In this document: positions 6,445-39,393 of the stretch, piece after piece
How positions within the stretch are numbered: the stretch's first letter is position 1
Layout: each line of letters opens with the position of its first letter
Source: a virus
Taxonomy: Duplodnaviria; Caudoviricetes
Length of the DNA: 49,576 nucleotides
Virus record (IMG/VR): IMGVR_UViG_3300027007_000029
Coordinates: 1 to 49,576 of that record
Reading direction: 5' to 3' (one strand)
Position numbers and translations under genes: made by a program
The notes under the pieces: generated by a model
Databases searched by the model: none
What the model was told of the DNA's origin: nothing
Seen by the model: only the letters and a program-made list of their open reading frames with translations

Positions 6445-6454
6445 AGGGTTCAGG

Positions 6455-6766
6455 TTAGTCGTTTTCCGCTCGCTTCAGCGCCATCCGAGCGTACCGCACC
6501 GCGTACCGGAAGTCGGTGTTAATCTTCTCGCCCCGCCGATACCACGGAGCGTCAACGGCGACAAGAGACCCGCACCGACTACACCCCGTCCCATCGTTGG
6601 CCGCCACGCGAAACTCTCGCGGTGGAGCCCAACAAAACGGGCAGGAGTACCGCCGCTCTGGATAGAGGGGGAAGGCGGCGACTGCACGGGCGTTCAGCTC
6701 CCGCTCGGCTTCAGCGGCCTCCGACTTCCGCCCCAAGTCTGCAAACGTGATCTGCTTCGAGGCCAT
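6455..6766 (-). CDS. Zinc-ribbon protein
   Basis: CPFC...CSRC; translationally coupled to its upstream neighbour. Confidence 0.7.
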   Translation of the reverse strand: MASKQITFADLGRKSEAAEAERELNARAVAAFPLYPERRYSCPFCWAPPREFRVAANDGTGCSRCGSLVAVDAPWYRRGEKINTDFRYAVRYARMALKRAEND

Positions 6767-6894
6767 TACTCTTTCTCCACGTCAACCGACCACCCCGCCT
6801 GCCGGAGAGTCGCCGCGTGCCGTTCCGCCTCGTTCCTGGTGGGAAACTCAGCGACGGTGCTTCCCGATCCTTTCCGTACAACGCAGTACGTCAT
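6766..6894 (-). CDS. 42-aa small protein (not in ORF track)
   Basis: MTYCVVRKGSGSTVAEFPTRNEAERHAATLRQAGWSVDVEKE; ATGA overlap with the polB stop and TAATG overlap with the next gene. Confidence 0.65.
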   Translation of the reverse strand: MTYCVVRKGSGSTVAEFPTRNEAERHAATLRQAGWSVDVEKE

Positions 6895-9332
6895 AGGAAG
6901 CTCCCGAGGCCAGTCTGATACTGATTCAGAATCGCGGTTTCAATGTCGACGCCGACGGCTTCCACGATGGGGCCAATCGGCTTCTCAATGAGCGTTTCGA
7001 CCATCCGTTTGGTATCAATGCGGAGGCCGTCGGGCAGAACCTCGGGGTCGTCGAAGCAAAGCACCTCTATCGACTCGTCCAGCTCAGCGAAGTACGTCGG
7101 CTGGAGGTAGACACGCTTCGGCTTCGAGTTCTCCCCGAAGTTCGTTCCGAGGAGCCGATTCGAGTTAATGGCTCCAGCAACCTGCGCGGTCGGTCGCTCG
7201 TAGGCCGCCAGCGGCTTCTTAATGCCCTGCGGGATACCAATAGCGTTCCAGTCGGGAGTCCCCGTACTCAACGCCTGCGCCGCCTTGTAGATCATCGTAC
7301 TCAGCGTCGCCGTGTCTCCATCGCGGAGAATCGACTCGACGACCGCCGTCTGAAGCTCGCTCGTGAACGGAGCTACGTCGGAGCGGTTCGTGTGAAGGCC
7401 GACCTTCTTGATTTCGTCCGTCTCTTTGCCGTTCTTCCACGTTACGTGTAGGGCGTACCGTTTTTTCTTGCCGTACTGGAAGAACCGAGGAGAGTAGGAC
7501 TCAACCTCAATACGCCAGCGGCAATCGCGGGTTCCCATATTGTATTCGACCGAGAACTCAGCGTATGCCGTCTCGTTGAGAGCGTCAGCCACGCGGTTCG
7601 CCTCGTCCAGCGCCTCGACACAATTATTTGCGCCAGAGAACGCTACGTAATTTGAGTCCGTATCTCCATAGATCACGCGACCCGCGGTGTTCGCCTCGAC
7701 GTAGCGGGACGTGAACTTGATAACTTCCTGTCCCATCGTTGTGACGGCCTCCGCGGTCGCCTCGTCGTAGAGGAAGAAGTATTCCCACCCCATAGTGCCG
7801 TACAGACTGTTAACTATCGTTTTCCTTACATCATATTCTTCGCTGAAACGAAGGTACTCAGCGGTGTTTGGCGTGAGCGAGTTACGCTTTTCCTTCGCCT
7901 CCGCTTTGAGCGACAGCGCCTCGTCGACGAGTTCGGTCATTACACCGAGCCGATCAAGGCGGAAGGCGGCTCCGTTCGGGGCGTGCGTGAACGGGCCTTT
8001 GAACGTTTCCGGGTCAACGCGGCACTCCGGGCTCGCGTTCAGCATCCACATCGTGTTGGGATACAGCGATTCCAGGTCCATCCCGACGACGTGCTCAGCG
8101 ACGCCGTAGTACGGATCGTGGACGTGGCCGCCCTCGTACTGTTTCTCCTTCTTTTCGTAGACGGTGGTCGGGCCGATCAGCCCCTTCTCGTGGAGCTTCC
8201 GCCGGACCATCATCTCGATGAAGTCGTTGTTATTCTCCGCATCACCGAAGTCAGCGCCGACTGCGTTCGCCAGCGCCGCCCGGAACGCGATAATTCCGAG
8301 CTTATCGTTGAGAGCGACGACGAGCCGAACGTCGTGGAAGTTGTAACGCAGGAGCTTATCGACGTTTGACTCCCACATCTCGTAGATGCCCTCGCCGGAG
8401 TGGTCGAGCTTCCGCTCTCTGAGTTCTTCCGCCGCGACCGCGTTGAGGGAGTACGACGGGAGCTCGCCACGCTTCGTCGATTTATAGGCGTCAAGCATAT
8501 CGTAGATCACGCGGCCCGCGATGTGCGGGCGACCCGTCTTCGACATACCTGCCCACCCATCGCGAGCGAGTCGGGAGGCGTCGACGCTGAGTTTCTTCAT
8601 CCGTTCGAGGATGTATGGTGCGTCGAAACCGATGTTCCACGCCGTCAGCACGTCGGGATTTACACCGGAAACGTACTGTGCGAAGCCCGCCAGCATCTCT
8701 ACCTCTGTCTCGTAGTAGTCGAGCGCGTCCAGGCCCTCGGGGAGACCATCAGGAAGTGCCTCACCGACCGGGCGACCATTGAGCCACACGAAGCCGCGGT
8801 ATTCACCGGACTGACTATCGTGGCTGACGAGGCTGAGAACCGGGCGCTCCCCCGGCTTCGGGAAACTCCCTCGGTCGTCGGTCTCAATGTCGAACGTCAG
8901 CACGGAGAAGTCCGTGGTAAAGTCGACAGGTTCTACGGCGGAAGCGGCGATCTCGGTTGCTCCGTCGGGAACGCGAATCCCCGTGTAAAGCTCTAAGTCA
9001 ATCAGGGCGCGGTTCTCGTACCACACGTCAGTCTCGAAGTTGGCCGAGAACAGCTCGCGGAGCTCGCGGGTCGCGTTCGTCGTCGTCACCTCAATTCGGC
9101 TCACGTCGTCGCCAAACAGCGAGGTGTACCCGTGTTCAATGGAGACGACGTGCTCGCGGCGCTCGAAGTCCACGAGGCCGTTCAGCTCCGAAGTCAGCAC
9201 GTAGAAGTATGGATTGAATCCCGTCACCTCTACCGTGTGAGCGTTCATCTCGGCGTCGCGTCCGTGAATACGAAGCCGGGTCTCGTTTCTGTCCGTTACT
9301 CGTTCTGTGTTCGTGATATACAGGTCTGTCAT
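6891..9332 (-). CDS. polB: Family B DNA polymerase with 3'-5' exonuclease
   Basis: FDIET, AWNIGFD, DLESLYP, KTIVNSLYG, YGDTDS, KKRY; C-terminal PIP box QTGLGSFL; no intein. Confidence 0.97.
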   Translation of the reverse strand: MTDLYITNTERVTDRNETRLRIHGRDAEMNAHTVEVTGFNPYFYVLTSELNGLVDFERREHVVSIEHGYTSLFGDDVSRIEVTTTNATRELRELFSANFETDVWYENRALIDLELYTGIRVPDGATEIAASAVEPVDFTTDFSVLTFDIETDDRGSFPKPGERPVLSLVSHDSQSGEYRGFVWLNGRPVGEALPDGLPEGLDALDYYETEVEMLAGFAQYVSGVNPDVLTAWNIGFDAPYILERMKKLSVDASRLARDGWAGMSKTGRPHIAGRVIYDMLDAYKSTKRGELPSYSLNAVAAEELRERKLDHSGEGIYEMWESNVDKLLRYNFHDVRLVVALNDKLGIIAFRAALANAVGADFGDAENNNDFIEMMVRRKLHEKGLIGPTTVYEKKEKQYEGGHVHDPYYGVAEHVVGMDLESLYPNTMWMLNASPECRVDPETFKGPFTHAPNGAAFRLDRLGVMTELVDEALSLKAEAKEKRNSLTPNTAEYLRFSEEYDVRKTIVNSLYGTMGWEYFFLYDEATAEAVTTMGQEVIKFTSRYVEANTAGRVIYGDTDSNYVAFSGANNCVEALDEANRVADALNETAYAEFSVEYNMGTRDCRWRIEVESYSPRFFQYGKKKRYALHVTWKNGKETDEIKKVGLHTNRSDVAPFTSELQTAVVESILRDGDTATLSTMIYKAAQALSTGTPDWNAIGIPQGIKKPLAAYERPTAQVAGAINSNRLLGTNFGENSKPKRVYLQPTYFAELDESIEVLCFDDPEVLPDGLRIDTKRMVETLIEKPIGPIVEAVGVDIETAILNQYQTGLGSFL

Positions 9333-9421
9333 TGGTCTTTGTCTTGGTCTTGGGTTCAGGATTGAGGAAATCGCATAGCCGCCGCTGGTTGGTCAGAGCC
9401 AACGGGCAGAAATGGGGAGAA

Positions 9422-10048
9422 TTAGAGGTGGGGGGAGCCGCCGTCGGTTCGGAGCTCGTCGAGAACTCCGTCTCTGTTCATCTCTTTACGTACATCTTCA
9501 CTCAGCAAGATAGCGTCAGAAGCAGACAGCCATCCGTCTATCTGCACGTTATTGAGCTTCGTGATAAGGTATCGCTTATCAGGCGTCTGTTTGTATTTCG
9601 CCAGAAGCGCGGTGGCTCTCGGAACGATCTCAGAGTACGGGAGCTGGTAGTAGTCTACCAGCCACCGATCACCCCCCTCATCATCGTATGCTTCGACAGC
9701 GACAACGCAACTCATCTGGCTGTTCGGGGGCCGATGGACAGAGACGGACAGCGGAGGGGTAAACGTCCAGTTCCCGTCCTCTTTGTGAACCCGCTCCAGA
9801 ACCATCTCGGGCTCCGGGGCCTGTTCTATCAGGGATTCCGATAACCCCTCGCACAGCGGAGACAGGGGGAGCAATCCTTGCGGCTTTCCGTCAAACTCGG
9901 TGGCGGCGTTCAGTTCTTCAACTGAGAAGCACGCCCGAGGATACGGTAATTGTGGGCTATTCATTTGGCACCGCATCTCCCTATGATAATGTTGGCTATA
10001 TGGCTTGTGCCACCATAATGAAAGTGAAACTGAACGTGTCAGTACCAC
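9422..10048 (-). CDS. Hypothetical protein (true start probably ~9964-9976)
   Basis: Open frame between the nuclease and polB; acidic C-terminal two-thirds. Confidence 0.55.
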   Translation of the reverse strand: MVLTRSVSLSLWWHKPYSQHYHREMRCQMNSPQLPYPRACFSVEELNAATEFDGKPQGLLPLSPLCEGLSESLIEQAPEPEMVLERVHKEDGNWTFTPPLSVSVHRPPNSQMSCVVAVEAYDDEGGDRWLVDYYQLPYSEIVPRATALLAKYKQTPDKRYLITKLNNVQIDGWLSASDAILLSEDVRKEMNRDGVLDELRTDGGSPHL

Positions 10049-10076
10049 TCTATCACATTATTCTACGTTGAGAGAT

Positions 10077-10982
10077 TTAGGAACCGCTCTCCAGCGGCTC
10101 TTTGCTATCAGAGTAGAAAGTTGGGCCAGGGCCATTCTTAGTCGCCCATTTGCACGGGCAGATGTGATAGAAAGATGACTTTTGATCTTCTTCCGGCCCC
10201 CACGCACAGAGTGGGCCGGGACTAATCGGGTAGTTGTCAACGTCGGTGCCAGCGTCTTCGAGCTCCTGGCACAGACGCTCAACTTTCTCGCGGCGCTTCT
10301 GCGTGGATTCAGCCGTGATGAAATCATCGTTCATCGGGTAGTATCCGCCGACTGCCGCCACGTTGTATTCGTCCTCAAAGAGCAGGGCGTAGTATTCCAG
10401 CTCAAGGAAGATGCCGTCGTTGCGGTATTTCTTCGGCGGGGTCTTGCCCGTCTTGAAGTCAATGACGACGACGCCCGCCGTATCAGGGCGGAAGTCGGGG
10501 AGAGACGCGGCCTCCACGATCACGTCAGCGAAGCCCATCCGGGGGATTAGCTGATTCCAGTCCCACACCTCGGCCTCGATGCCGACCGCGGGGAACAGCG
10601 AAACGTCACCGATCTCGCGGCACCGCTGAAGCCGGCGGGCCTCGAACAGCAGGAAGTTCGTGATGAACGGCTCCGTGTAGTCCATCCACCGGGTGTAATC
10701 CAACGGAAGGTAGATCGTGAGATCGTCGGACACGTCGCCGGTCTCCTCGAACGCCTCTCGGACGTTGTAGTAGTAGTCCTCGAAGACGGAGTGGATGTTC
10801 GAGCCACGACGCATATAGAAGTTCGTCGGCTCGCGGAGCCCTCGGATATACTTAAGATAGAAGTGGTATGGATTTTTCGCGTACTCCATCAGCCGCGACT
10901 TGCTGATGTAGGGCATATGCGTGTCGCGTTCCTCCTGAATCTCTCGGGCGATCTCGAAGTTGGGGGAGTCAATGGCCGGCAT
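10077..10982 (-). CDS. Cas4/RecB-like PD-(D/E)XK exonuclease
   Basis: ISKSRL...FYLKYI, RGSNIH..FE, GFADV, DFKTGK, LEYY, C-terminal Cys cluster. Confidence 0.85.
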   Translation of the reverse strand: MPAIDSPNFEIAREIQEERDTHMPYISKSRLMEYAKNPYHFYLKYIRGLREPTNFYMRRGSNIHSVFEDYYYNVREAFEETGDVSDDLTIYLPLDYTRWMDYTEPFITNFLLFEARRLQRCREIGDVSLFPAVGIEAEVWDWNQLIPRMGFADVIVEAASLPDFRPDTAGVVVIDFKTGKTPPKKYRNDGIFLELEYYALLFEDEYNVAAVGGYYPMNDDFITAESTQKRREKVERLCQELEDAGTDVDNYPISPGPLCAWGPEEDQKSSFYHICPCKWATKNGPGPTFYSDSKEPLESGS

Positions 10983-11146
10983 CAGCGAAGCTCCTGCGGG
11001 TACTCAACGTCGACTCCGAGCGCCGTCACCGCCAGATCAAATTGATGGGCGGCGTTCTCGAAGTGAGTTCTTGCGGTCTCGTTCGACGTGAGCGCCGCGA
11101 GGTAGATCAACAGGTTGTACGTCTCTTGGGAAGTAATTGGTCTCAT
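10982..11146 (-). CDS. Small hypothetical protein (MRPITSQ...)
   Basis: TGATG coupling to the nuclease; internal ATG of the track ORF. Confidence 0.5.
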   Translation of the reverse strand: MRPITSQETYNLLIYLAALTSNETARTHFENAAHQFDLAVTALGVDVEYPQELR

Positions 11147-11171
11147 TGTCTTAGGGCTCGGGGGAGCTGTA

Positions 11172-11399
11172 TTACTGCGGAACGCGCCGCCGGGGAGCGG
11201 GCCGTCCGGTCGACTCGTAGGGCTTGCAGAACTCGGCTTCAAGCCACTCTTTCGTCGTCTCGTAGACTGCCGTCTGACAGGCCACGGGGCTTCCGCACGT
11301 CGCCCGGTAGATGTTCGTTCCGGGGTAGTTCCGAATCTTCAGGCGTTCACCGCACGATCCACAGCGGGCGTCGGTCTCAATGTCTTCTTCGGTGGTCAT
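11172..11399 (-). CDS. Small zinc-finger protein
   Basis: CGSCG...CGSPVAC; preceded by CCTGAACCC. Confidence 0.7.
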   Translation of the reverse strand: MTTEEDIETDARCGSCGERLKIRNYPGTNIYRATCGSPVACQTAVYETTKEWLEAEFCKPYESTGRPAPRRRVPQ

Positions 11400-11414
11400 A
11401 GGGTTCAGGATTTT

Positions 11415-11588
11415 TTACTGGAAACGATCAGCGTCGTTTGCTTGCCGTTCGAGGGCGCGGAGATGGTCAGTCACGTCGCGCACCTGCGTTGTCCCGTCGT
11501 TGCCGGTCTCAAACTCCAGCACGACGTACCCGCCGGCAACCGCGTGGGCCAGCGCCTCGCTCAGCACCTCCTCGGGTGTGAACTTCAT
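11415..11588 (-). CDS. 57-aa hypothetical protein (not in ORF track)
   Basis: MKFTPEEVLSEALAHAVAGGYVVLEFETG...; fills an operon gap. Confidence 0.6.
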   Translation of the reverse strand: MKFTPEEVLSEALAHAVAGGYVVLEFETGNDGTTQVRDVTDHLRALERQANDADRFQ

Positions 11589-11594
11589 CGGCGC

Positions 11595-11732
11595 TCAGCT
11601 CCGGGCGCGGTAACAGCTCGAACAGAACCGACCGCGGAAGCCCGCGCCGACACGGACTTTCGTTCCGCACTCGGCACACGGGCGACTCGGCTTTTGCTTT
11701 CGGAGCTGTCGCCACGAGGTGCGGTGGTTCAT
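11595..11732 (-). CDS. 45-aa basic zinc-finger protein (not in ORF track)
   Basis: CAECG...FCSSCY; ATGA overlap with the upstream gene. Confidence 0.6.
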   Translation of the reverse strand: MNHRTSWRQLRKQKPSRPCAECGTKVRVGAGFRGRFCSSCYRARS

Positions 11733-12259
11733 CGGGCCGCCTCCTCGGTGTTGTCGGGAGTATCAGCAAGTGCCAGATACAACTCTTTGTTTTCTTCCAC
11801 GTCTCGTTCCATCCACTCTTGGGCGCTCAGTTCGTCGTCGCCGTCGTCGGTATCCTCGTAGTTCTCGCGGTAGCCCTCAGCCAGCCGCTCAACAGGGGTG
11901 GCCTTCTCAGCCATATCAGCGTGGTTCTCCGCGGCCATTGCCGCGTACACCATTTCGTCCTCAGCGGAGTCACCGACCGCCTCGAAGTTCATTTCGTCAG
12001 CGAAGAACGTCCCGAAGAACTCTCGGGAGAACTTGTCGAGCCGACGGGTAAACAGCCCGAAGGCGATCACCTTCTCCGTGCTGTCGAGAACGATGGGCTC
12101 GCCGTGGGCCATAATTTCGAGGATCGAGCCGATGCTTTTCCAGCTCGATCCATAGTCTCGCGTTTTCTTCTCGAACGTGTCAGCGCCGGTTCGCAGAATC
12201 GTAGCGGCTTCGCGGCTGTTTTCGGTCTGGTCGTTGTCGGGGGTCGTGATTTCAGTCAT
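11729..12259 (-). CDS. Nucleotide-modification-associated domain 1 (DUF1599, MazG-like) protein
   Basis: FEKKTRDYGSSW, DKFSR and DSAEDEMVYA match the Kx2DYGxSW...DKxxR...DxxxDxxxY pattern. Confidence 0.65.
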   Translation of the reverse strand: MTEITTPDNDQTENSREAATILRTGADTFEKKTRDYGSSWKSIGSILEIMAHGEPIVLDSTEKVIAFGLFTRRLDKFSREFFGTFFADEMNFEAVGDSAEDEMVYAAMAAENHADMAEKATPVERLAEGYRENYEDTDDGDDELSAQEWMERDVEENKELYLALADTPDNTEEAAR

Positions 12260-12278
12260 TGTAGGGTTCAGATTTCAG

Positions 12279-12512
12279 TTACTCGAACAGGTCGTCCATT
12301 GAGGCGATGGTGGTAGGTCGCTCGTTGCGAATCCTGTCGATCTCCACGATGTTCAGCGCGGTCCAATCACAGCCGGGGCAATCGGCTATATCGTAGAACT
12401 GCTGAATCACCGGGGGCTGTACGAACGTCACCCCACAATTCGCACAGTAGAACCGATCTCGGGTATCGCAGAGATCGTCGTCGCCGTCGTGGTCAGTTGG
12501 ATTCTGGCTCAT
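12279..12512 (-). CDS. Small zinc-finger protein
   Basis: CANCG...CPGC. Confidence 0.7.
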   Translation of the reverse strand: MSQNPTDHDGDDDLCDTRDRFYCANCGVTFVQPPVIQQFYDIADCPGCDWTALNIVEIDRIRNERPTTIASMDDLFE

Positions 12513-12693
12513 CTCGGACTCTAATTATATCGCCAATGCGCTCGTATTCGAGACCGTCAGCCGTCGTGAATTTGATCGTCCCCGAAGGCATCCGCATAGC
12601 GTCAATGACGTTCTCGAATCGTTCGACTTCTCGGCCCTCCGGCTCGTCGTATGGATAGAGCCAGAGGGTGAACGGCGTGGCCTGCTCAGTCAT
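12493..12693 (-). CDS. Hypothetical protein (MTEQATPF...)
   Basis: Start overlaps the end of the HAD gene; acidic. Confidence 0.55.
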   Translation of the reverse strand: MTEQATPFTLWLYPYDEPEGREVERFENVIDAMRMPSGTIKFTTADGLEYERIGDIIRVRDEPESN

Positions 12694-13093
12694 CGGCGGG
12701 AACCTCGGGAGCTTCCGCCGGAATTTCACCCGTATTCGATGGGGGCCACGGTTGCCGAGCGAGAATCCCCGACACATCGGCCTGCCAACCGTCAGCGTTG
12801 ACGTTGACCGCCTTATCGTCGAGGTACACGTCGGAGCCACCTTTGCCCATCATCAGGCCGTGGAACCGAACGTCCCACTCAGTCAGTCGGGCGGCGACAA
12901 TGTGTGCCTCAGTCCACGGGCGAGCCGTCCACACCAGGAGGGTGTGACCCTCGTAGTATCGGTCCCGCATCCACTCAATGACTTCGGGATTTGGCCTCTC
13001 GTCGCCGTATTCGTATTCGTTTTCTGTCACCGTAATCGTGTGGTCGAAGTCGACGCTGATCGTTTTCTTCGACGCATAGGGTTCACTCGTCAT
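12686..13093 (-). CDS. Capless HAD-superfamily phosphatase
   Basis: DFDHT (motif I), WTAR (II), K...YLDDK (III/IV). Confidence 0.85.
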   Translation of the reverse strand: MTSEPYASKKTISVDFDHTITVTENEYEYGDERPNPEVIEWMRDRYYEGHTLLVWTARPWTEAHIVAARLTEWDVRFHGLMMGKGGSDVYLDDKAVNVNADGWQADVSGILARQPWPPSNTGEIPAEAPEVPADD

Positions 13094-13368
13094 TGTGGGT
13101 AGGATTCACGCTGATCTACGGCGGAACGCGGCTCGGGTCGTCGGTACAGGGCAATTCCAACCCAAATACAGAGTCCAAACGCCGTCGCCACGACCGAGCC
13201 CCACAGATCGAGGCCGATGTACGCCACAAGTATGGCAACCATCGACACGATCACGAGGCCGGAGTGGGTCATAGGCACCGCCGCCCGCCGATTAGCCAGC
13301 GTCGTCATAGCAGACAGATTCAGCGCCCACCCCGCGAGGGTGAGAACCAAATCCGGCCACGCCATCAC
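13090..13368 (-). CDS. Small 3-TM membrane protein
   Basis: Three hydrophobic segments followed by a basic stop-transfer YRRP. Confidence 0.7.
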   Translation of the reverse strand: MMAWPDLVLTLAGWALNLSAMTTLANRRAAVPMTHSGLVIVSMVAILVAYIGLDLWGSVVATAFGLCIWVGIALYRRPEPRSAVDQRESYPQ

Positions 13369-13589
13369 TCGTCGTCGGACTCCGCCGACAGCTCATCAGG
13401 GTGGCCGCGATAGAGGTAGTACGTCGGCACGTCGTCGTCCATCTCTACTTCAAGGCTGTTCAGCTCGTAAGCGTTGAATACAGATTCGATTAGTTGCATC
13501 CCGACAACGAGACGGTGGTGGTCAGCCTCCGTCATTGCCTCTGGAGTACGGTCGGGATTTGGCGTCGGGTTGGGGGCAGAGTCGATCAT
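13365..13589 (-). CDS. Small acidic protein
   Basis: Coupled overlaps; similar to the adjacent ORF. Confidence 0.65.
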   Translation of the reverse strand: MIDSAPNPTPNPDRTPEAMTEADHHRLVVGMQLIESVFNAYELNSLEVEMDDDVPTYYLYRGHPDELSAESDDE

Positions 13590-13792
13590 TACTCGCCCTC
13601 CGCGGTTCCAGTCTCGAACGCGATGTAGAACACACCGCGCCCTTCGGGTAGTTCGAGTTCCAGCTCGCTGATTTCAAACGAGCGGAAGAACTCGTAGAGC
13701 GCCGCCGCGAGGAACGTTGCGATTTCCTCCTCGGTTTCGCTCATCGGTACGTCTTCAGGTTCAGGTTCAGGGGTGGTCGTCGAGTTACTCAT
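13589..13792 (-). CDS. Small acidic protein (apparent paralog of the neighbour)
   Basis: FRSFEISELELEL...FYI vs FNAYELNSLEVEM...YYL. Confidence 0.65.
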   Translation of the reverse strand: MSNSTTTPEPEPEDVPMSETEEEIATFLAAALYEFFRSFEISELELELPEGRGVFYIAFETGTAEGE

Positions 13793-16016: not shown

Positions 16017-16091
16017 TTAGGGTTCGGAATCGTGTTGGAATATCTGTACGAGAGAGTGGCGTCGAAATCCGGGGAGAGGGCAAATCGGCGT

Positions 16092-19016: not shown

Positions 19017-19151
19017 TTCGGGTTCAGGAATTTCTCTGGAGTCGATTCAGCTCACAACCGCCCGCCGATTACACGGTGAAAGTTACCCCCGGAATACGGC
19101 GGAAGGCGGCGAGGATCGGGGAGGTGTGGTCAGCACCCCCGACGCTCAGCC

Positions 19152-20120: not shown

Positions 20121-20271
20121 TGTTGTGTGATCTCCTATCGGAGAGAAGACGCCGCCAAAGAACGGCGGCTGAGAGAGACGGGCGTGGTCAGCGCCCGCAG
20201 AGTCGAGAAAGAACCGCAGACCGCAGACACAGAACGTAAAAACCGAGTCAACGCCCCCGTGGAGGGGGCAG

Positions 20272-21836: not shown

Positions 21837-22105
21837 TGGTTGTCGTAACCATTTGAAGGGGGATATTTGTATCTTCATTGCTGTCTGTGCTACTATGATT
21901 CTCTCAGACGGACGAATTTTAGATAGCTTTATACAGTCTTAGAGCGTCTATTAGGTAGAGAACAACCGTGAGAGGGTTCTCTGTCTGATACCTCTGGTAG
22001 TAATCTATTCGTTAGACTACTCTCTCTAAGACTACTACCTATACTACTCTCAGTAGACTACACTCTAAGGAGACTACTCTCTAAGCAGACTACATTGGAG
22101 GAGAC

Positions 22106-22144
22106 ACCTTCCGCCCTATTACAGGAGGAGAGTAATCTCCTATA
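22106..22144 (+). repeat. 39-bp dispersed repeat, copy 1
   Basis: ACCTTCCGCCCTATTACAGGAGGAGAGTA[A/T]TCTCCTATA; 38/39 identical to 29481-29519. Confidence 0.9.
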
Positions 22145-22223
22145 ATATAGTATAGGTAGCAATCTCCTCGGCCTCGGTATTTCGACTGCATCCTCTCGAT
22201 TTGCGTTGTCTCCCCTATCTCCG

Positions 22224-24862: not shown

Positions 24863-24902
24863 AGTTGGTTTCGGGTTCAGGTTCCCCCTACCGTCGGGGG
24901 AA

Positions 24903-25929: not shown

Positions 25930-25961
25930 AGGGTTCAGGTTTCAGCCCCCTTCCAGGGGCA

Positions 25962-26297: not shown

Positions 26298-26710
26298 AGG
26301 TGGTCAACCTCAAAGAGCGCACTTCCGAAGCCGTCGTTGTCGCCCGGATAGAACGACAGCGACCACCCCATCTCGTAGTAATCGGTGTCGTATTCCGGGG
26401 GGTGCCAGTACGATCCTCTCGATGTTCGGTAGGTCACGCCCACGTCGAAGCGCCCGAGGAACCGGATTCCCCATACGCGCTCTCTATCCGTGATAGTCTC
26501 GTAATTCTCGAAGTCGTCTCGGAGATCGTAGACCGGGGGGACGGATTCATTTTCGGCCCCATCGGGAAGCGCCAACTGAACGTCCTTGTTTCGCAGGACT
26601 TCGGGCGCGATTGAGAACGCCACGTCAGCGATGGTCTTCAGCGGGATTTCGACGGTCTCCACTTCGGTCTCAGATTCAGGCTCAGGTTCAGGGGTAGGGT
26701 CAGTTGTCAT
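26294..26710 (-). CDS. Hypothetical protein (MTTDPTPEPEP...)
   Basis: Acidic; start overlaps the upstream gene end. Confidence 0.6.
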   Translation of the reverse strand: MTTDPTPEPEPESETEVETVEIPLKTIADVAFSIAPEVLRNKDVQLALPDGAENESVPPVYDLRDDFENYETITDRERVWGIRFLGRFDVGVTYRTSRGSYWHPPEYDTDYYEMGWSLSFYPGDNDGFGSALFEVDHL

Positions 26711-27373: not shown

Positions 27374-27412
27374 TTTGGGTTCAGGTTTTAGGTCATTGGT
27401 CGACAGGCGGTA

Positions 27413-29100: not shown

Positions 29101-29183
29101 TTTGGTTTTCAGGTTCAGGTTTCAGCCGGCCACCCGAAGCCGGCGCTCGGTTCTCAATCCTTCCCCCTGCTTTTTCGGGGGAT

Positions 29184-29425: not shown

Positions 29426-29480
29426 CTTAGGATTCTCTATCAGTAGGAGACTCTAATGAGGAGACTCCGTGGTAGGAGAG

Positions 29481-29519
29481 ACCTTCCGCCCTATTACAGG
29501 AGGAGAGTATTCTCCTATA
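29481..29519 (+). repeat. 39-bp dispersed repeat, copy 2
   Basis: 38/39 identical to 22106-22144. Confidence 0.9.
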
Positions 29520-29537
29520 TACTATACAGCTATACTA

Positions 29538-30314: not shown

Positions 30315-30357
30315 TTTTGGGTTCAGGTTTCGGTGTTGGTCGTGATTTCAGCTCGAT

Positions 30358-30738: not shown

Positions 30739-30767
30739 CTTCTATTCCTTCCCCCATTTGGGGGAGG

Positions 30768-30954: not shown

Positions 30955-30978
30955 AAAATCCGGTGGAAGCGCGGTTGT

Positions 30979-31128: not shown

Positions 31129-31177
31129 TGGTCTAAGGGTTCAGGTGTATCGTTGATCGTTGGTTGTCGGTCGGTTC

Positions 31178-31987: not shown

Positions 31988-32052
31988 AGCAGTCACTTTT
32001 GGGTGGTCGTTCGGTCGGTACGTCGGTCGTTTCCCCTGATTTTTCGGGGAAG

Positions 32053-32094
32053 GCCCGCCGGGGGAATTGAACCCCCGCAAGTCCAAACGCGGGC
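32053..32094 (-). ncRNA. tRNA-like element H
   Basis: GCCCGC/GCGGGC stem, CGGGGG-TTCAATT-CCCCCG arm, TTCCCC/GGGGAA hairpin. Confidence 0.7.
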
Positions 32095-32660
32095 TTATCC
32101 AGCCAGTCTCGAATTGGGATATGTGGTCGTCAAAGGCATATCCCACCGGGGCGCGGCGCTTTGATTATAGCGGTTCGCTAATCGCGGGTTTAGCTTCGCG
32201 TTAGGCTTTACGTCGCGTGGTACACTTCCCGTCGCCCGTTCGACTTCCCCGGTTTCTACCCGGTTTCACGTCGCGGCGCTTTTTGGGAATCACTCACGCG
32301 CCCGGTGGTCGATCCCACCGTCGCCCGTCCTAATGCTGATTTAACTCACTTCCGGGGGCTTTGTATCGCCCGTCCGGTCGCAAGAAATCGCCCGCTTTGG
32401 CGTATGTAGGCTCGGCGTATTCCAGCCGTTTTGTCCCTGAAATCCCCGACGCCCGTTGCGCCGATCCTTTCAGGCTTACTTCCCCGCCCGTCCTACGCGG
32501 GGGTTTTCTTTGGGGGGCTTTTCACCCCAAAGGTCACTCCGATTTGCCCGGTCGTCGTCGGGGGTGCCACCCCCGCCCGAGTTTCCCGAGCAACCGTTCT
32601 CCCGCGGGGGCCTCGTCCGGTAAAGTCAACCGTTGCCCCCGAGGGGATAGCTGAACAGAT

Positions 32661-32680
32661 GTTGGAAGATAATATAAACG
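32661..32680 (-). promoter_or_regulatory. Leftward early promoter
   Basis: TTTATA followed by TTCCAAC, as at 20631-20650. Confidence 0.6.
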
Positions 32681-32761
32681 TTGTGGTAGTCTGCAATCCT
32701 GACACTTGGGGGTGCAAAGAAGCTGAATACGGCAGTTTGGAGCTTTGTCGCACTTACTGAT

Positions 32762-33335
32762 GGGGTTACGGTAAGATTCGACTTAGCATTAGTTGCAGTC
32801 TAAGTCAATGATGTAACAAAGGGGTTGTGGTCGGACTGGAGGAGAGTGATGGAAAGGCCGTACAAAGTCGGAGACGGCGGGTTCCGCCGGAATCTGGGTT
32901 TGTGGGATACAGTCGAAAGGCCCGGCGGGGCTGAATCCGGGGGATAAGGGCTTTATACAGTCGTTTTAGTGGTTGTGAGATACAGCTATATAGGTGGCTA
33001 AGTGTAAGTGAACGGTGGGAAACGCTGTCGACGGGGGTTTGACTTGCCTTTCCTCTCAATTGACGGGCTTTTAGAATCCTCGAAACCTGATTCTATGGAC
33101 GGTCTTTCACCTCTGATCCCACCGACTTACCGTAACCCCGAAATCCCTGCAACAAACGACTTGCTTCCAGCTCGAATCCGATTGCGGTAATCCGGCGGAA
33201 GCCCGCCGAAAAGGGGTTTCACGCTTTCTGCTACTGGGTTACGGTTAGTCGTCGACGGGTTACGCTAACGGTCGAGGAGGCTGGATAGAAGGGGGTGGAT
33301 ACCGGGGTGGTCGACGGATACGAGGAAGGGTTACG
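32762..33335. repeat. GGGTTACG repeat cluster including a 14-bp inverted pair
   Basis: GGGGTTACGGTAAG 32762-32775 vs its reverse complement 33126-33139; further GGGTTACG at 33236, 33257, 33328. Confidence 0.75.
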
Positions 33336-33475
33336 ACACCGATCCCTGCTCGCACGCGGGAAGGATACGTTAGCCGCTCACAGGATTTCAGAAATTTCGG
33401 AACCCGTTATCTGTTCTTTCTATCATCCTTCCATTTCTATCGCCCTCTGCTGGTTTACGCACCTCGCGCCCGCGC

Positions 33476-33540
33476 ACGCAATGCGTTAACGCGCAAAACG
33501 CGTAATGCGTACACGCAATTACGTATACGCAATGCGCGTA
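33476..33540. promoter_or_regulatory. ACGCAAT/ATGCGT palindromic cluster upstream of the TATA box at ~33572
   Basis: acgcaatgcgt, acgcgtaatgcgt, acgcaattacgt, acgcaatgcgcgt. Confidence 0.5.
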
Positions 33541-33604
33541 AATTGGCGTTTCAGGGGCTCTAACCCCAAGATTTATATTTCTATGTCAATAAAGTAGAAT
33601 TAGA

Positions 33605-34075
33605 ATGGCTACCAATGAGATCCGAGTAAGTAGTGCGAAGAACCGGCGTTCCAATCAAGCGATAGCGGGCAGATTAGAGAATCAAGATCGAGGCTCTGTG
33701 GATCGGGACAGGTCGATACTGCCCATCACAGATCACGCTCGTATGCGATGGGCAGAGCGAGCTTCTGATGCAGAATCAGATATTGAGACAGCATTGGTCC
33801 GATCCATCCCAGTTGACGCTCCCCAGAGAGAGTGTGATAGCGCCCGGCTGTACGCACCGTGTGATGTGGTGTTCAGGGTTCAAGATGGGAAAATTACCAG
33901 CGTGTGGCCAGCCAATTATGACACTCTCGCTACTGATGATCTCGGGCGGTGTGAGAAATGTGAAAATCTCGAACGGTTCACCGGAGTTGAACAAATTTGT
34001 CGCTGGTGCAGAAGTCACGCGGCAACTATAGAAATGGCGAATGGAGTAACAGTACGGTTCAATGGGGAGAAGTAG
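33605..34075 (+). CDS. Possible BECR/RelE-like RNase-fold protein with C-terminal zinc ribbon
   Basis: ITDHARMRWAER helix, VVFRVQDGKITSVW strands, CEKC...CRWC. Confidence 0.55.
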   Translation: MATNEIRVSSAKNRRSNQAIAGRLENQDRGSVDRDRSILPITDHARMRWAERASDAESDIETALVRSIPVDAPQRECDSARLYAPCDVVFRVQDGKITSVWPANYDTLATDDLGRCEKCENLERFTGVEQICRWCRSHAATIEMANGVTVRFNGEK

Positions 34076-34076
34076 C

Positions 34077-34388
34077 ATGGCGTTTACTGTTCCAGTAAAG
34101 GACCTGGCAGAGGTCAAGCCGACCGGGAATTACGTTGTTGTGAAGGCGTGGGTGAATCATATACGAGATCTCAATTCTCCTGTTCCCTATCAGAAGGGAA
34201 TTCTTGGGGATGACTCCTCGTGGAATATTGAGCCGAGAAAATTCGTCGTATACGACTCTGATTTGCGACTCGAAAAAGGGAACAAGTATCGAATCTTCGG
34301 GCGGGAGCGAGGGTACGAAGATCTGGATGAGATTCAGATTGAAATTGGCGACGCCGACCACGTTACTTTACTCTACGAAGGAAAATAG
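34077..34388 (+). CDS. Single OB-fold (RPA-like) protein
   Basis: VVVKAWV...QKGILGDDS...FVVY...LEKGNKYRI...Y...IEI matches the haloarchaeal RPA OB-fold pattern. Confidence 0.6.
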   Translation: MAFTVPVKDLAEVKPTGNYVVVKAWVNHIRDLNSPVPYQKGILGDDSSWNIEPRKFVVYDSDLRLEKGNKYRIFGRERGYEDLDEIQIEIGDADHVTLLYEGK

Positions 34389-35043
34389 GTGCTTGGAAAT
34401 TTCTATAGTTGCAGAATTTGACAATATTGTTCGGCTGCGCGTGAGATCGGATTTTGGCGTCGGGTCGAAAACTGCTATATAAACTTGACTATTTTCAGCA
34501 CTTCAGATACCGATAATAAGCTATTTAGTATATAAAGGCGGCTGAGATATATAAACCGTTGTGTATTAGTAGGGGTAGGAGTGAAGAAGTTGGCCCTCCG
34601 GGTTAACACCTCGACTCCACTCCCCTCTGACCTTTCCTAAATCGCCGTGATCGAGTTCCTCCATTAGTTGAGATAAAACCGTTACCGGATTTAGGAGACA
34701 GACTTTGAGCTGACACAAGTCGGGTCAGAGAACGCGAGTAACTGTGAGGCGCTTCCGCCTTAATCTCCTACAATACTCTCCTAAAGAGTGTTCTCGGATT
34801 AGAGTGGAAGCTCCGAGTTCTACCTATCGTAAGTCAGCCCTATATTATAGGTAGAAGGTTCGTCGACCGGCTATTCTTTTTGCTGATCGAGCTGTTGCTC
34901 GCGGTCTCTTTCACCTCTCTTTCTCACATTTTGCGGTCTCGGTTTCGGTTCTCTGGTCTAATCTGGTTCACTCTGGCGCTCTCTGCGCCCTCTCTGGTCT
35001 CACATTCAATCAACCGCCGTTGAGCGGTTTTTCACTACTCAAT

Positions 35044-35478
35044 ATGGCTACTACGACTTACAATAACTTCAAGCAACTTCTGCTGAACGGCGGGATCGAC
35101 CTCGACACGGACACAATTCGCGCTCTAATCATCGACGATTCTGTTTCCTACACGCCGGACATTGACAACGACGTTTACGTTGACGACGTGACTGTGGCGG
35201 CCAGCGAAATGAGCGGGACGGGCTACACGCGCAAGACGCTCAACGTCACCATTTCTACGGACAACGCGAATGATCGTGGCGTTGCCGACGCTGACGACCT
35301 GAGTTACACCGGCCTCGACGCCGGCACGATCCAGGGCGTGCTGATCTACAAAGAGGTTAGCACTGATTCGGACTCGCCTCTTATTGGCTGGTACGAGTCG
35401 TCCGATTTCCCGCTCCCGACGAACGGGGGCGACGTTACGCTCACCATCAACGCGGCTGGCCTGCTGACTCTCGGGTGA
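35044..35478 (+). CDS. Virion structural protein (fibre-associated)
   Basis: GYTRKTL and NGGDVTLTINAAGLLTL pattern common in phage structural proteins. Confidence 0.65.
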   Translation: MATTTYNNFKQLLLNGGIDLDTDTIRALIIDDSVSYTPDIDNDVYVDDVTVAASEMSGTGYTRKTLNVTISTDNANDRGVADADDLSYTGLDAGTIQGVLIYKEVSTDSDSPLIGWYESSDFPLPTNGGDVTLTINAAGLLTLG

Positions 35479-35482
35479 GTAA

Positions 35483-35827
35483 ATGGCTTCTCGTCTTTTC
35501 GTTCTACCCGAGGAAGGAACCGGAACGGAAAGCGACCCGTTCCGTCCGAAGTATCTCTACGACAACAGCACTCCACCTGCGTTACGACCGGAAGTAACCA
35601 AGTTCTACGGCGGCGAGGCGTTCGAGAAGGCGGGACAGGATTGGCACACGGTTCGTGTGTTCTCTGACGACCCGGCAAATCTCGATTGGCTTGAGTCACA
35701 ACCCGACGTGTACGACATTGATTTGTCCGTCCTCGTCTCTGCACTGAATAGCTCTCCGCTGTTCCCGGTTGACCTTACCCCGCGAGAGTGGGCGCTGTTG
35801 TTCTCGAAAATCCTGATGCGGCCCTAA
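35483..35827 (+). CDS. Hypothetical protein
   Basis: 114 aa in the late operon. Confidence 0.65.
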   Translation: MASRLFVLPEEGTGTESDPFRPKYLYDNSTPPALRPEVTKFYGGEAFEKAGQDWHTVRVFSDDPANLDWLESQPDVYDIDLSVLVSALNSSPLFPVDLTPREWALLFSKILMRP

Positions 35828-35835
35828 TCTGACAA

Positions 35836-38202
35836 ATGCCTACTACGTTAGCAGACTTTGAAAGCGGTAATCTCTCAGATTTTGCTCGTACTGACAATTG
35901 GGAAATTTCAGCGTTTAGAAAATCTGGTTCGTATTCGGCATCTGCTTACCAGCCTTACACTTCTCAGGGCCTTGTTTCAGGTAGCGGTCTACCCGCTTTT
36001 GACCGTGGTAATTCTCTTGAAGTTTGGGTCTACTACGGAAATTCAAGTTTCAATCCTTCATCCTATTTAAGTATCCTATTTGGTAGGTCAACTACAACCG
36101 GAAGGGCGTATCAGGTTTATTTTGATGGGAGTTCTTCAAGAGAAATTGAAATTGTAGGTGACTACACCACAATAGCGTCTCAATATGTGGGAGTTTTGGA
36201 TTGGGGTTGGTATAAAGTTCAAATAGACTACGACCTCATTGGAGATGGTAAAATCGACGTTACGGTTTGGGACGAGAGCCTTACCGAGATTGCGTCAATA
36301 TCTGCAACTGATACAACTTATAACGGTTCGTATTGGGGCGTTTCCGGTAGGGGAGATAGACTATACGTAGATGATTTTGTTCTTCTCGACCCCGCTGGTT
36401 CACAAGTTGTTACGCTTGATGCCGCGTCTCTGCTTACGAGCGCACAGTCGCTCTCGGCTACCAATTCGGGCGCTGTTCCTACTTCGGATGTAACCCGTGG
36501 ACTCGTTTCAAAGTGGACGCTTGACGGTGACGGTCTCGATCAAGTAGGTACGCTCGACCCGTCAACGGTGTCTGGTGTCACGTACACGAGCGGGTACATT
36601 GACCAAGCGGGGTCGTTCGACGGCTCTGACTACATTGAGTACCCGGCTGATGGGTCTATTCAGACGGCAGATTTCACGATCTCCGCGTGGGCGAACCTCA
36701 ACAGCGTGTCGGAAGGCACGACGAACATTCAGACTGTTTCAGCCAAGAACCTCGATCACACCGACCGGCAGTTCTGGTTGGTGGAGTGGGACGGTGCGTG
36801 GGTCTGTCGTATCGGGTCTAACGGACAGGGCGTGGTCGGCCCGGCGGCTACTCCGGGTGCGTGGACACACCTGCTGGCGACCTACGACAGCGCGAGCAAC
36901 ACGTTCGAGCTATGGGTGAACGGTGTTTCTGCGGGGACAGCGAGCGAGTCTACTATCGGCGGTGCTGGTCAAACGTTCTGTATCGGCTCGGAGTCGGCGG
37001 CCTACCGGATGTTCGCCGGCCTCATTGACGAGGTTCGGTACTACAACGTCGTTCTGACCGATCAGGAGATTGCCGATCTGTACGCTTACGATGGTACGTC
37101 GGCGCTGGTCACGGCGTCTCTTGAGGCGGCTTCTCTTGCGTTCTCTCCGCGTGCGTTGGGCGCGACGCCTGGTGCTACCGGAGCAACCCTCGGGGCGGCA
37201 CAGGCGAACCTCGGCGCGTACAGCGTTGATACGGCTAAGGCGCTGGTGACAGCGGGGATGGATTCGGCGGCGCTTACGTCGTCGGTGTCCTCAATATCAG
37301 CGACTCCTGGCCCAACGTCAGTTGCACTCGGCTCAGCCGGTGTCACGGCGTCCCCGGTCTCTCCGACGGTGGCTCCTGGTCCTGTTTCGGCAGGGATCGA
37401 CGCGGCAGGGATTACGGCGGCAGCGGCCTCGGTGGGTACGACGCTCGGTGTTGTGTCTCCGGTGCTTGCTTCCGCGTCTGTCTCGTCGACGCCAGCTCCG
37501 TTCGGGTCTATCGTAGGACCGACGACCGCCGACCTGGACTCGTCGAGTCTGTTTGCTCTGTCGCGCCCTCTCGGCGTCTCTGAGGCCGTGTATGCGGCGC
37601 TTGAGTCAGCGGCCATTGTGTCTGCTCCGGGTGCTCTCGGGGCGACTCCGGGCGCGGTGTTGGCTACTATGCCGGTATCTACGCTCAACGTGGTGGCTGA
37701 GTCCCCGGTGGTTGCGCTCGCGGAACTTTCCGTTGACCTCGACGCGGGCTCTCTCGATGTATCGGTGCGGAAGGTGACGCCGGTCGCCGGTTCTGTCTCT
37801 GTTGGGTTGGAATCGGCGTCGGTTGTGCTGACTCTCCCCGACGTTGAGGCACTCAAGGCGTTGGTTGCCGCGCTCGACGCGGCTTCTCTCTCGTCTGTCG
37901 CCCCCGATGTGGGTGCGATTCCGGGGCCTCTCAGCCCCGAGCTGGACGCCGCTTCCGCCGTTATCGGGGCGTCTTCGGTCGATGTTGCGCTTGATTTGCG
38001 CTCTGTGGGCTTCGATGTAGCCGATTTGGTCACTCAACTCCCTGGAATCTCGGCTGAGAACGTTCTGTATCTGTTCCTTCGAGTCAGCGAGGCCGGAAAT
38101 AGCGGCTTCGCCCTCGATGGAACGGGTGAAACGAGCTTTTCGCTCGGTAATTCCGGTGAAAACGGCTTCGAGCTGGACTCTGGCAACGAAAACACTCTCT
38201 GA
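35836..38202 (+). CDS. Fibre/adhesin with concanavalin-A/LamG domains and an Ala/Ser/Val-rich repeat stalk
   Basis: FTISAW, WTHLLATYD, LWVNG, FAGLIDEVRYYN (LamG). Confidence 0.8.
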   Translation: MPTTLADFESGNLSDFARTDNWEISAFRKSGSYSASAYQPYTSQGLVSGSGLPAFDRGNSLEVWVYYGNSSFNPSSYLSILFGRSTTTGRAYQVYFDGSSSREIEIVGDYTTIASQYVGVLDWGWYKVQIDYDLIGDGKIDVTVWDESLTEIASISATDTTYNGSYWGVSGRGDRLYVDDFVLLDPAGSQVVTLDAASLLTSAQSLSATNSGAVPTSDVTRGLVSKWTLDGDGLDQVGTLDPSTVSGVTYTSGYIDQAGSFDGSDYIEYPADGSIQTADFTISAWANLNSVSEGTTNIQTVSAKNLDHTDRQFWLVEWDGAWVCRIGSNGQGVVGPAATPGAWTHLLATYDSASNTFELWVNGVSAGTASESTIGGAGQTFCIGSESAAYRMFAGLIDEVRYYNVVLTDQEIADLYAYDGTSALVTASLEAASLAFSPRALGATPGATGATLGAAQANLGAYSVDTAKALVTAGMDSAALTSSVSSISATPGPTSVALGSAGVTASPVSPTVAPGPVSAGIDAAGITAAAASVGTTLGVVSPVLASASVSSTPAPFGSIVGPTTADLDSSSLFALSRPLGVSEAVYAALESAAIVSAPGALGATPGAVLATMPVSTLNVVAESPVVALAELSVDLDAGSLDVSVRKVTPVAGSVSVGLESASVVLTLPDVEALKALVAALDAASLSSVAPDVGAIPGPLSPELDAASAVIGASSVDVALDLRSVGFDVADLVTQLPGISAENVLYLFLRVSEAGNSGFALDGTGETSFSLGNSGENGFELDSGNENTL

Positions 38203-38207
38203 TCTCT

Positions 38208-38531
38208 ATGGCTGACTTCAAAATCACTCAAAACGACACGTATCCCGCAATTTCGGGGACGTGCAAGGATGATGGCAGTAATCCCGTCGATATTACGGGT
38301 GCGACCGTCCGATTCCACCTCAAGGCCCCCGGATCGGAGACCGCGAAGGTCGATGAGCCGGCTTCTATTCTCGATGCGGCGGCTGGATCGGTCGCGTATC
38401 AATGGGTTGCCGGTGATACGGACACTCCGGGGACGTATTTCGCGGAGTTTGAGGTGACGCATAGTGATGGGAACCCCGAGACCTTCCCGAGCGACCCGCT
38501 TGTGGTCTATATCCGCGAGGAGTTGGCCTGA
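38208..38531 (+). CDS. BppU-N-like domain protein
   Basis: ITQNDT, VDITGATVRF, AEFEVT...ETFP. Confidence 0.7.
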   Translation: MADFKITQNDTYPAISGTCKDDGSNPVDITGATVRFHLKAPGSETAKVDEPASILDAAAGSVAYQWVAGDTDTPGTYFAEFEVTHSDGNPETFPSDPLVVYIREELA

Positions 38532-39265
38532 TGGCGTTCGGTGAGGTGACGGGGGCGACGGCCCAGGAGGTCGCGGAGCTGAAATTTCAGTACGAGCGGT
38601 CGCCTCACTACGAAAAGACGAGCGAACCCTTTGAGTCTGCGTACTGTTTGACCCGGATCGGCAAACAGCCCGAGGACTACGACGGCCCGACGCGCTGGTG
38701 TCAGAACCGGGCAGCGGTCGTCGACGGCGAGCGAGGTCACTCCTGCCGATTTCACGGCGGGAAACGGAACCCGGACACGGACAATCTCGATCCGCAAGCA
38801 AATCTGAAGCACTCGATGTACGCATTACCTGAAACTATCTACGCAACTCTCACCGAGGAGGAGCGCGAGCTCTACGAGTGGGTCTTTACGTGGCCGGAAG
38901 TCTACGAGATCGACCTCTCGGCTGACCCCGCCGCCGAACACGACTTCGAGACTCTGGCGCTCGAAATTGTCCGGCAGGCTCGCTCCTCGGACTACATCTT
39001 GGCGAATACGGAAGTTCGTCAGGAGGGTGTCTATACGGCACAGGGTGAGCTTCTGGAGCGAAAGGATGTTCCGAACTCTCTCATTGACGCTCACCAGCGC
39101 CAGATTCGCCTGATTAACACGATCAAGGACGCTCTCGGCATTACGCGGAAGGCGCAGGCGGCAAACGACACGCAGGAATCGGCTAACGATCTAATGGATT
39201 CACTCTCGACTGTTCTCTCGCGGTTCACCTCTGGTGGAGAGTACGATCCAGACCAATTCGAGTAA
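38531..39265 (+). CDS. terS: Probable terminase small subunit
   Basis: CRFHGG...NLKH (HGGxSTG-like), helical C-terminus ending LGITRK; upstream of TerL. Confidence 0.65.
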   Translation: MAFGEVTGATAQEVAELKFQYERSPHYEKTSEPFESAYCLTRIGKQPEDYDGPTRWCQNRAAVVDGERGHSCRFHGGKRNPDTDNLDPQANLKHSMYALPETIYATLTEEERELYEWVFTWPEVYEIDLSADPAAEHDFETLALEIVRQARSSDYILANTEVRQEGVYTAQGELLERKDVPNSLIDAHQRQIRLINTIKDALGITRKAQAANDTQESANDLMDSLSTVLSRFTSGGEYDPDQFE

Positions 39266-39393
39266 AAGCGCCCGTGATGGGGCGTTGACTCGGTTACGAA
39301 AGGGGGAAGGAACGACGAGTGACCAAACCCGTCGACCTATTCCCTGAACCCTAAGACGAAACCCGCGACCAACGGGATCGCCTACCCCGAGAT

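Follow-up and report, generated by a model that had tools for sequence, protein, structure and literature searches.

The 49,576-nt stretch of viral DNA analysed here as a whole (the window; IMG/VR record IMGVR_UViG_3300027007_000029) belongs to a Hafunaviridae-like haloarchaeal virus and carries a short word, CCTGAACCC, just ahead of the start codons of many of its early genes. This word (the box) marks uncoupled early starts, and a single complement of it, situated beside the small-terminase gene, follows the box sequence of each viral lineage. The sequence evidence indicates that the word probably serves as the target box for an antisense RNA, encoded by the virus and directed at many targets, which would block the translation of early genes, probably late in infection. 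The boxed genes form the minus-strand replication and accessory arm and are called early by analogy with HF2 (PMC8707807).

There are 10 exact copies of CCTGAACCC in the window, compared with 0.37 ± 0.63 in shuffled sequences, and none of 100 shuffles reached 10. Nine of the 10 lie 1–19 nt ahead of early-gene AUGs, solely at uncoupled starts. A preliminary description of this DNA had reported a motif a short distance upstream of many start codons, mainly at genes not coupled to an upstream stop, and our counts bear it out: besides the excess over background, the sequence is present at all 12 minus-strand sites listed (1, 19, 1, 4, 3, 3, 10, 1, 3, 11, 4 and 8 nt from the ATG, in coordinate order), and the word or a listed variant stands at 12 of the 23 uncoupled early starts and at none of the 20 coupled ones. 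Throughout, gene starts and their coupled or uncoupled status were taken from a purpose-made simple gene caller, not a standard one, and the motif patterns were picked after the data had been inspected. The short motif ACCAA occurs in 7/24 uncoupled and 0/21 coupled leaders of the window. Between the window and its relative in G170, a 3.5-Mb host genome with a provirus, the box bases are 93.3% identical and their 5′ flanks 77.6%. It is also correct, as had been claimed, that two PEPE runs near gene starts are coded CCT-GAA-CCT; this holds in both the window and G170, where codon usage predicts about 1.5% per PEP, and most internal PEP runs are coded by other codons. The true starts of these two genes are more likely ATG 13792 and ATG 26710, with the copies 18–20 nt inside coupled genes.

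HRTV-27, HRTV-25 and HF2 are all members of the Hafunaviridae. The PolB protein of the window is 50% identical to that of HRTV-27 and the capsid protein about 60%, and HRTV-27 is the sister lineage to the window clade (tree support 0.998); PolB used alone as the query recovered no viral relatives. Relatives of the window also lie inside haloarchaeal genomes as proviruses (11 of 401 genomes matched) and the window encodes an integrase, so that the motif-bearing viruses, to judge from these two features, are temperate. Each lineage has its own word: CCGAACTACC in HRTV-27, CTACCCAACC in HRTV-25 and G009, CCAACCAGACCCAA in G249 and G373, and mixed forms in G343 and G291, and these different words stand at orthologous starts. 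No enriched word was found in G003, G004, G007, G008, G231 or G006. When nine viruses were pooled (G010 was left out of the tables since its counts duplicate those of G004), a box was present at 94 of the 216 uncoupled starts and at only one of the 152 coupled starts, with a box-to-AUG spacer of 0–4 nt at 85 of 117 sites. Sites of Shine-Dalgarno strength were distributed in the opposite way, at 52/151 coupled versus 3/96 boxed starts, consistent with the use of Shine-Dalgarno sequences for reinitiation in haloarchaea (PMC6728339). A scan of viral contigs with the pattern AACCTGAACCC-N0-6-ATG gave about 2400 scattered single matches. At G249 ~20397 (plus strand) and G373 ~18025 (minus strand), the box is followed by a start-stop ATGTGA and, 7–8 nt on, by the real ATG, ahead of a reversed gene pair.

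To locate the complement, we searched the viruses for stretches of 30 nt (anti-leader windows) that are complementary to many uncoupled leaders, leaving aside the strand opposite the early genes themselves. The fragments G001, G002, G005, G008 and G009, in which the early arm or the terminase region is not in one piece, were excluded, and the HF2 piece entered the scan without its terminase end, which was analysed afterwards. In all eight motif-bearing viruses scanned, the best anti-leader window fell in non-coding DNA close to the small-terminase gene, with matches to 10/24, 7/20, 23/32, 18/32, 14/26, 6/29, 5/22 and 6/29 uncoupled leaders, respectively; in the seven other viruses scanned, the best window matched at most three. 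The complement tracks the word of each lineage (CCTGAACCC, CCGAACTACC, CTACCCAACC or CCAACCAGACCCAA). A cross-table of matches with at least nine contiguous pairs is block-diagonal, each RNA matching the leaders of its own clade only: the window RNA matches 12 leaders of the window, 9 of G170 and 0–1 elsewhere, and the HRTV-27 RNA matches 7 of its own and none elsewhere. In HRTV-27, the complement of its different word occupies the same position as in the window, again with a TATA box and a terminator. In the HRTV-25 clade, the complement lies on the opposite strand, upstream of the late promoter, and occurs once more in the late leader. Two seeds that correspond to two word types are present in HRTV-25 and in G343, and the seeds of G249 and G373 include an anti-AUG. 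A duplex cut-off of −15 kcal/mol was rejected as a discriminator, because G-rich RNAs then pair with all leaders, coupled ones included.

In the window, the complement corresponds to a plus-strand copy of the word at 39343. The preliminary description had listed this copy along with the others, without recognizing it as the likely antisense partner. The copy is indeed there, but it is not associated with a gene start: 42 nt separate it from the following ATG, which G170 and G001 lack, whereas the opposite-orientation copy itself is conserved in both. Read on the minus strand, it falls within a conserved non-coding unit of about 120 nt with sequences resembling a transcription factor B recognition element (BRE) and a TATA box, hairpins and a putative terminator (Table 1), the promoter being predicted from the BRE/TATA consensus. 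The same TTATAT at 39412-39407 could serve the plus-strand gene 39430, too. Between the window and G170, the predicted RNA is 95.2% identical over 125 nt, compared with 84.9% for coding and 79.9% for other non-coding DNA, and all four single-side stem changes among three sequences retain a G-U or A-U pair on the minus strand. The partner (39341-39354) lies 8–33 kb from its targets (6446-31145). No Rfam family, C4 included, gave a match at gathering score in the window, and for 38400-40200 no RNA holder was listed, a result that counts neither for nor against the RNA. A search of the viral contigs for a compensated 17-nt target yielded four loci, one of which is the G001 partner locus.

These features suggest how such an RNA might act. 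The partner would be transcribed from a TATA box that resembles the bidirectional late (class II) promoter of the family, and would pair with each box through a seed of 9–11 nt. Its UUGGU loops may help by meeting the ACCAA spacers, as may a second pyrimidine tract by matching two more leaders. Since at most sites the duplex would stop 0–4 nt short of the AUG, or would cover it, initiation would be blocked, and ribosome loading on many early genes would be prevented together; coupled genes, which follow their leader gene, could do without a box. The purpose could be an early-to-late switch or, with a different timing, silencing in the provirus. The resemblance of the window TATA box to the class II core is the reason for preferring a late shut-off of early genes.

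Three further cases (L242, HF2 and L234) were checked after the antisense idea had been written down. L242 has a new word, AACATTCGACC, and an 18-nt complement directly after its late promoter. For the HF2 word AACCAGAGA, the complement is situated at ~76526 of the record, in the small-terminase leader, and 9/9 of the haloferacalesvirus loci that were examined have it there. It has matches of 11–15 nt to four middle-gene leaders of HF2, and is located ~80–100 nt into the transcript that starts from the class II repeat (76604-76651). This repeat drives the 35-kb late transcript of HF2 and fires in both directions (Russ et al., PMC8707807).

A number of results weigh against the antisense reading. 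The reverse copy of the L234 word is within an open reading frame, and GTGACACC, the second leader word of HF2, has no reverse copy in the small-terminase leader of the nine loci. The position of the partner varies by clade (after the small-terminase gene, upstream but on the opposite strand, or within the late leader), and in HRTV-27, G249 and G373 its other strand precedes an ATG and a short frame. No two-sided compensatory pair was seen among 40 pairs, and one terminator pair is broken (three sequences). In the predicted fold, the seed of the window RNA is open only in part, with a mean unpaired probability of 0.36, compared with 0.71 in HRTV-27 and 0.29–0.56 for seven other seeds. Among the deviations from the seed, changes compatible with G-U pairing show no enrichment (30/808, against 7/114 for non-pairing transitions). 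A 17-nt match between 20241-20257 and the 3′ part of the RNA barely exceeds the controls (0/40 random pieces reach 17 and four reach 15–16) and shrinks to 15 nt in G170. Finally, a relic leader, a decoy or a DNA site would also give a reverse copy, and the block-diagonal table alone cannot separate these from an antisense RNA. In HF2, a reverse copy of GTGACACC is located in an early transcript (L123:10128), adjoining an annotated hammerhead ribozyme, and is the top match in G369 too; it may be the partner of GTGACACC.

As for what the box is not, its pairing with the tails of three haloarchaeal 16S rRNAs amounts to −3.5 kcal/mol, compared with −14.7 to −15.2 kcal/mol for GGAGGTGA, and the statement that the motif is not Shine-Dalgarno-like is thus upheld. 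Shine-Dalgarno sequences keep a fixed spacing of ~5–10 nt to the start codon, and most spacers here, 85/117, are of only 0–4 nt. An internal 16S-pairing enhancer was also rejected: the complements to the three 16S rRNAs are just 5–7 nt long and are matched by 23–60 of 60 shuffles, so that complementarity to 16S rRNA, for which a check had been suggested, is no better than chance, 23S and 5S rRNA being outside the search. The HRTV-27 word has a 9-nt complement near 16S position 1243 (L186-L188, three hosts; 0/60 shuffles), which the six other words do not share. The word is virus-specific, as had been proposed: six of the seven CCTGAACCC-N0-12-ATG matches in the G170 genome fall in its provirus, and four other genomes contain 0–3 copies before an ATG. 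An HF2-type intergenic-repeat promoter, with TATA ~26 nt before the start site, was rejected because no TATA-like match was found at −45 to −10 for any of the 12 boxes; for the same reason (0/12), a signal at the RNA level, as first thought, is most likely.

Two structural ideas in the preliminary description did not hold. The CUGA of the word had been read as half of a box D or K-turn, and its GAACCC as a partner of T-arms. Relatives that keep the same T-arm elements use words lacking both (CTACCCAACC, ACCAGACCC and ACATTCGACC), hence neither CUGA nor the T-arm complement is the conserved feature; a box C partner was not searched for. T-arm-like matches are present in all relatives scanned except G006. 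In the window, T-arm hairpin elements occur in the early arm at 32076, 30791, 25986, 24927, 20417 and 20296 (minus strand), most of them followed by a 5′ hairpin and a leader, and are likely to be processing sites for ribonucleases (RNases) P and Z. Hairpins with two UGAAA words, which presumably resemble paired T-loops, precede early genes in L122 (HRTV-25; 10 pattern matches), G007 (10), G343 (8) and G249 (7), and are nearly missing in the window (1) and G170 (0).

The description of the word as standing in place of a Shine-Dalgarno sequence is right in so far as it is tied to translation starts; a positive initiation signal has, however, become a rival rather than the lead. In such a scheme the box would be a Shine-Dalgarno-independent initiation element, either an unstructured A/C-rich landing pad or the site of a viral or host RNA-binding protein, and the reverse copies would be relics or decoys. 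Box leaders are indeed poor in G (0.10 versus 0.34) and weakly folded (−2.2 versus −8.2 kcal/mol) relative to coupled starts, the leaders of motif-less relatives still look G-poor by eye, and Shine-Dalgarno-strength sites are rare at boxed starts (3/96 versus 52/151). Yet lack of structure needs no fixed word, and exclusion of the Shine-Dalgarno sequence is partly forced, as the box occupies that window. No protein cluster is common to the motif-bearing viruses and absent from the others, and a conserved, lineage-matched complement with promoter and terminator would be left unexplained. We regard this explanation as unlikely, even though it and the antisense target can both be true, an open leader also being a good RNA target. 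A little less probable still is that the partner RNA pairs with the boxes but activates: the duplex end would guide a structure-specific host nuclease to cut long viral transcripts before the AUG, giving leaderless mRNAs, or would deliver the ribosome. The duplex ends 0–4 nt before the AUG at 85/117 sites; an RNase attacking duplex ends has been reported for phiH1 Tant, and the long HF2 transcripts seem processed (PMC8707807); in H. volcanii, 72% of transcripts are leaderless and Shine-Dalgarno sequences are unused in de novo initiation (PMC6728339). Against it, the seeds of G249, G373 and HRTV-27 reach over the AUG, some spacers are 8–19 nt long, and the HF2 complement is on the late transcript, too late for middle genes. 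If true, it would mean a programmable RNA-guided route to archaeal translation initiation, and the same logic of box and mirror copy would underlie the start-associated sequences (SAS) of mycobacteriophages.

Two more accounts do without a partner RNA. The boxes could be DNA sites for a viral repressor, comparable to the stoperators of mycobacteriophage L5 (mentioned in PMC3203893), which are reportedly bound on DNA by the immunity repressor, with the lone copies as operators near late promoters. The temperate nature of the viruses (integrase, proviruses), the asymmetric, oriented and lineage-specific word and the lone copies near promoters would all fit. This account is nonetheless improbable, given the tight tie to AUGs (0–4 nt) and to uncoupled starts, the late-leader copies oriented against transcription, the matches that run to 15–18 nt and over the AUG, and the lack of any copy at the early promoter region of the window; no repressor-family match was obtained among the 52 window proteins either, save the helix-turn-helix (HTH) domain of a phosphoesterase. 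Neutral homogenization, by which a functionless word would have spread through micro-homology recombination at the borders of gene cassettes, deserves the least credence of all. Although it would account for a separate word per lineage at orthologous starts, for the patchy distribution on the tree and for a partner locus that resembles a copied leader, it does not explain why the box bases are conserved more than their flanks (93% versus 78%) and the partner more than coding DNA, or why the complement turns up in the same neighbourhood from lineage to lineage.

Among known systems, the predicted antisense RNA works most like the C4 RNA of phages P1 and P7 without being a member of that family, and its layout is like that of the cluster K mycobacteriophage SAS, with an unlike sequence. 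C4 is a phage-encoded trans-acting RNA whose short seeds occlude start regions of the phage's own genes, and specificity between relatives depends on a small number of base changes in RNA and target (PMC5320573). Seed and target likewise change together between the related viruses studied here. C4 seeds are displayed single-stranded; for the predicted seeds of the haloviruses, the mean unpaired probability ranges from 0.29 to 0.71. The halovirus RNA differs in having no Rfam match, an archaeal host and 5–23 target leaders across the early arm, compared with the boxes of one operon for C4; its target is not a Shine-Dalgarno sequence, and its timing is probably late, while C4 acts in lysogeny. 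C4 is an expressed RNA, matured by RNase P, that represses its targets; the halovirus RNA is predicted. The SAS are asymmetric words a few nt before the ATG of non-structural genes, in larger gaps and rare in the host, and Pope et al. noted one opposite-orientation copy away from gene starts (PMC3203893). Their consensus, GGGATAGGAGCCC, has an AGGAG Shine-Dalgarno core, to which the halovirus word, lacking anti-Shine-Dalgarno pairing, is unrelated; no antisense partner is proposed in the accessible parts of PMC3203893. In mycobacteriophage Anaya, the lone reverse SAS copy lies in non-coding DNA, where a stable hairpin (z −4.3; L196:34790-34960, record 59789-59959) displays it in its loop; the element is found in 138 mycobacteriophage records. 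The phiH1 Tant RNA is another case of haloviral antisense control, in which an early mRNA is made untranslatable (PMC4284463, PMC8707807); Tant is, however, encoded in cis opposite one transcript, unlike the present partner, which is 8–33 kb from many targets that it matches by 9–11 nt. The class I/II repeats of HF2 are also repeated intergenic words in the same virus family, class II being the promoter upstream of the HF2 complement, but they are TATA promoters of 29–58 bp (PMC8707807), and the boxes, without an upstream TATA (0/12), form a separate layer.

Searches of the open-licence literature, without the supplements of PMC8707807 and PMC7230728, turned up no account of the word, of an RNA with many targets in these viruses, or of a like case in any archaeal virus. 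Temporal control in HF2 has been ascribed to proteins acting on promoters (PMC8707807); if our antisense reading is true, an RNA layer would be added to it, with one short-seed RNA controlling from 5 to more than 20 genes of archaeal viruses, and with seed and targets rewritten together several times. HF2 is available together with its late promoter, as is a reporter system in Haloferax (PMC8707807). Pairs of seed and box that differ from lineage to lineage could be used in haloarchaea as orthogonal switches of translation and might define groups of superinfection, and the antisense reading also offers a concrete hypothesis for the cluster K SAS, left unexplained in the accessible parts of the 2011 paper (PMC3203893).

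Table 1 Coordinates of the boxes, the predicted partner RNA and associated features in the window
Feature	Position	Strand	Remarks
Target box	6446-6454	−	1 nt before ATG 6444, DUF6610 gene
Target box	9352-9360	−	19 nt before PolB ATG 9332; spacer ends GACCA-ATG
Target box	11401-11409	−	1 nt before ATG 11399
Variant box TCTGAACCC	12264-12272	−	4 nt before ATG 12259
Tandem CCTGAACCT, coding PEPE	13755-13772	−	~20 nt after ATG 13792, 12 nt before in-frame ATG 13744
Variant box CCGAACCC	16020-16027	−	3 nt before ATG 16016, HTH-metallophosphoesterase gene
Target box	19020-19028	−	3 nt before ATG 19016
17-nt match to 3′ part of predicted RNA (suggestive only)	20241-20257	−	Just past T-arm element 20296
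Target box	24873-24881	−	Downstream of T-arm element and 5′ hairpin; 10 nt before ATG 24862
Target box	25931-25939	−	Downstream of T-arm element and 5′ hairpin; 1 nt before ATG 25929
CCTGAACCT within coding sequence	26684-26692	−	Codons 7–9 after ATG 26710
Target box	27377-27385	−	3 nt before ATG 27373, MaoC-like gene
Variant box CCTGAACCT	29111-29119	−	About 10–11 nt before ATG 29100
Possible secondary target	29158-29168	−	57 nt before ATG 29100
Target box	30319-30327	−	4 nt before ATG 30314
Possible secondary target GGGGGAAGGAA	30745-30755	−	6 nt before ATG 30738, uncoupled start without main box
Target box	31137-31145	−	8 nt before ATG 31128; spacer ends GACCA-ATG
Landmark gene	38531-39265	+	54% identical to HRTV-27 gp3 (annotated putative terminase small subunit)
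Predicted small antisense RNA	39266-39390	−	Between small-terminase-like and DUF5802 genes; 5′ end uncertain by several nt
Terminator-like hairpin, then T run	39269-39284	−	
Possible second seed, pyrimidine tract	39301-39313	−	Matches leaders at 30755 and 29168
Hairpin 2 of predicted RNA	39314-39333	−	Loop UUGGUC
Anti-box seed of predicted RNA	39341-39354	−	Complement of plus-strand copy 39343-39351
Hairpin 1 of predicted RNA	39354-39383	−	Loop UUGGU
Predicted promoter	39407-39420	−	BRE-like CGAAA 39420-39416, TATA-like TTATAT 39412-39407

Some other features of the window may be mentioned. An Eco57I-like restriction-modification gene (2059-5502, minus strand) lies in a block of lower GC content that adjoins the integrase. 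Blocks rich in AT and related to one another, in which TAGAG/CTCTA words are repeated, are found at ~22000-22150, ~29440-29520 and ~34760-34860; they may be promoters or an origin, and two of them share a near-identical core of ~30 nt. The uncoupled late starts at 44180, 44712, 45246 and 48506 (plus strand) are preceded not by the A/C-rich box but by leaders rich in U and C (TTTCTA(T)CT type), and leaders of this type also precede late genes of L001 and L122.

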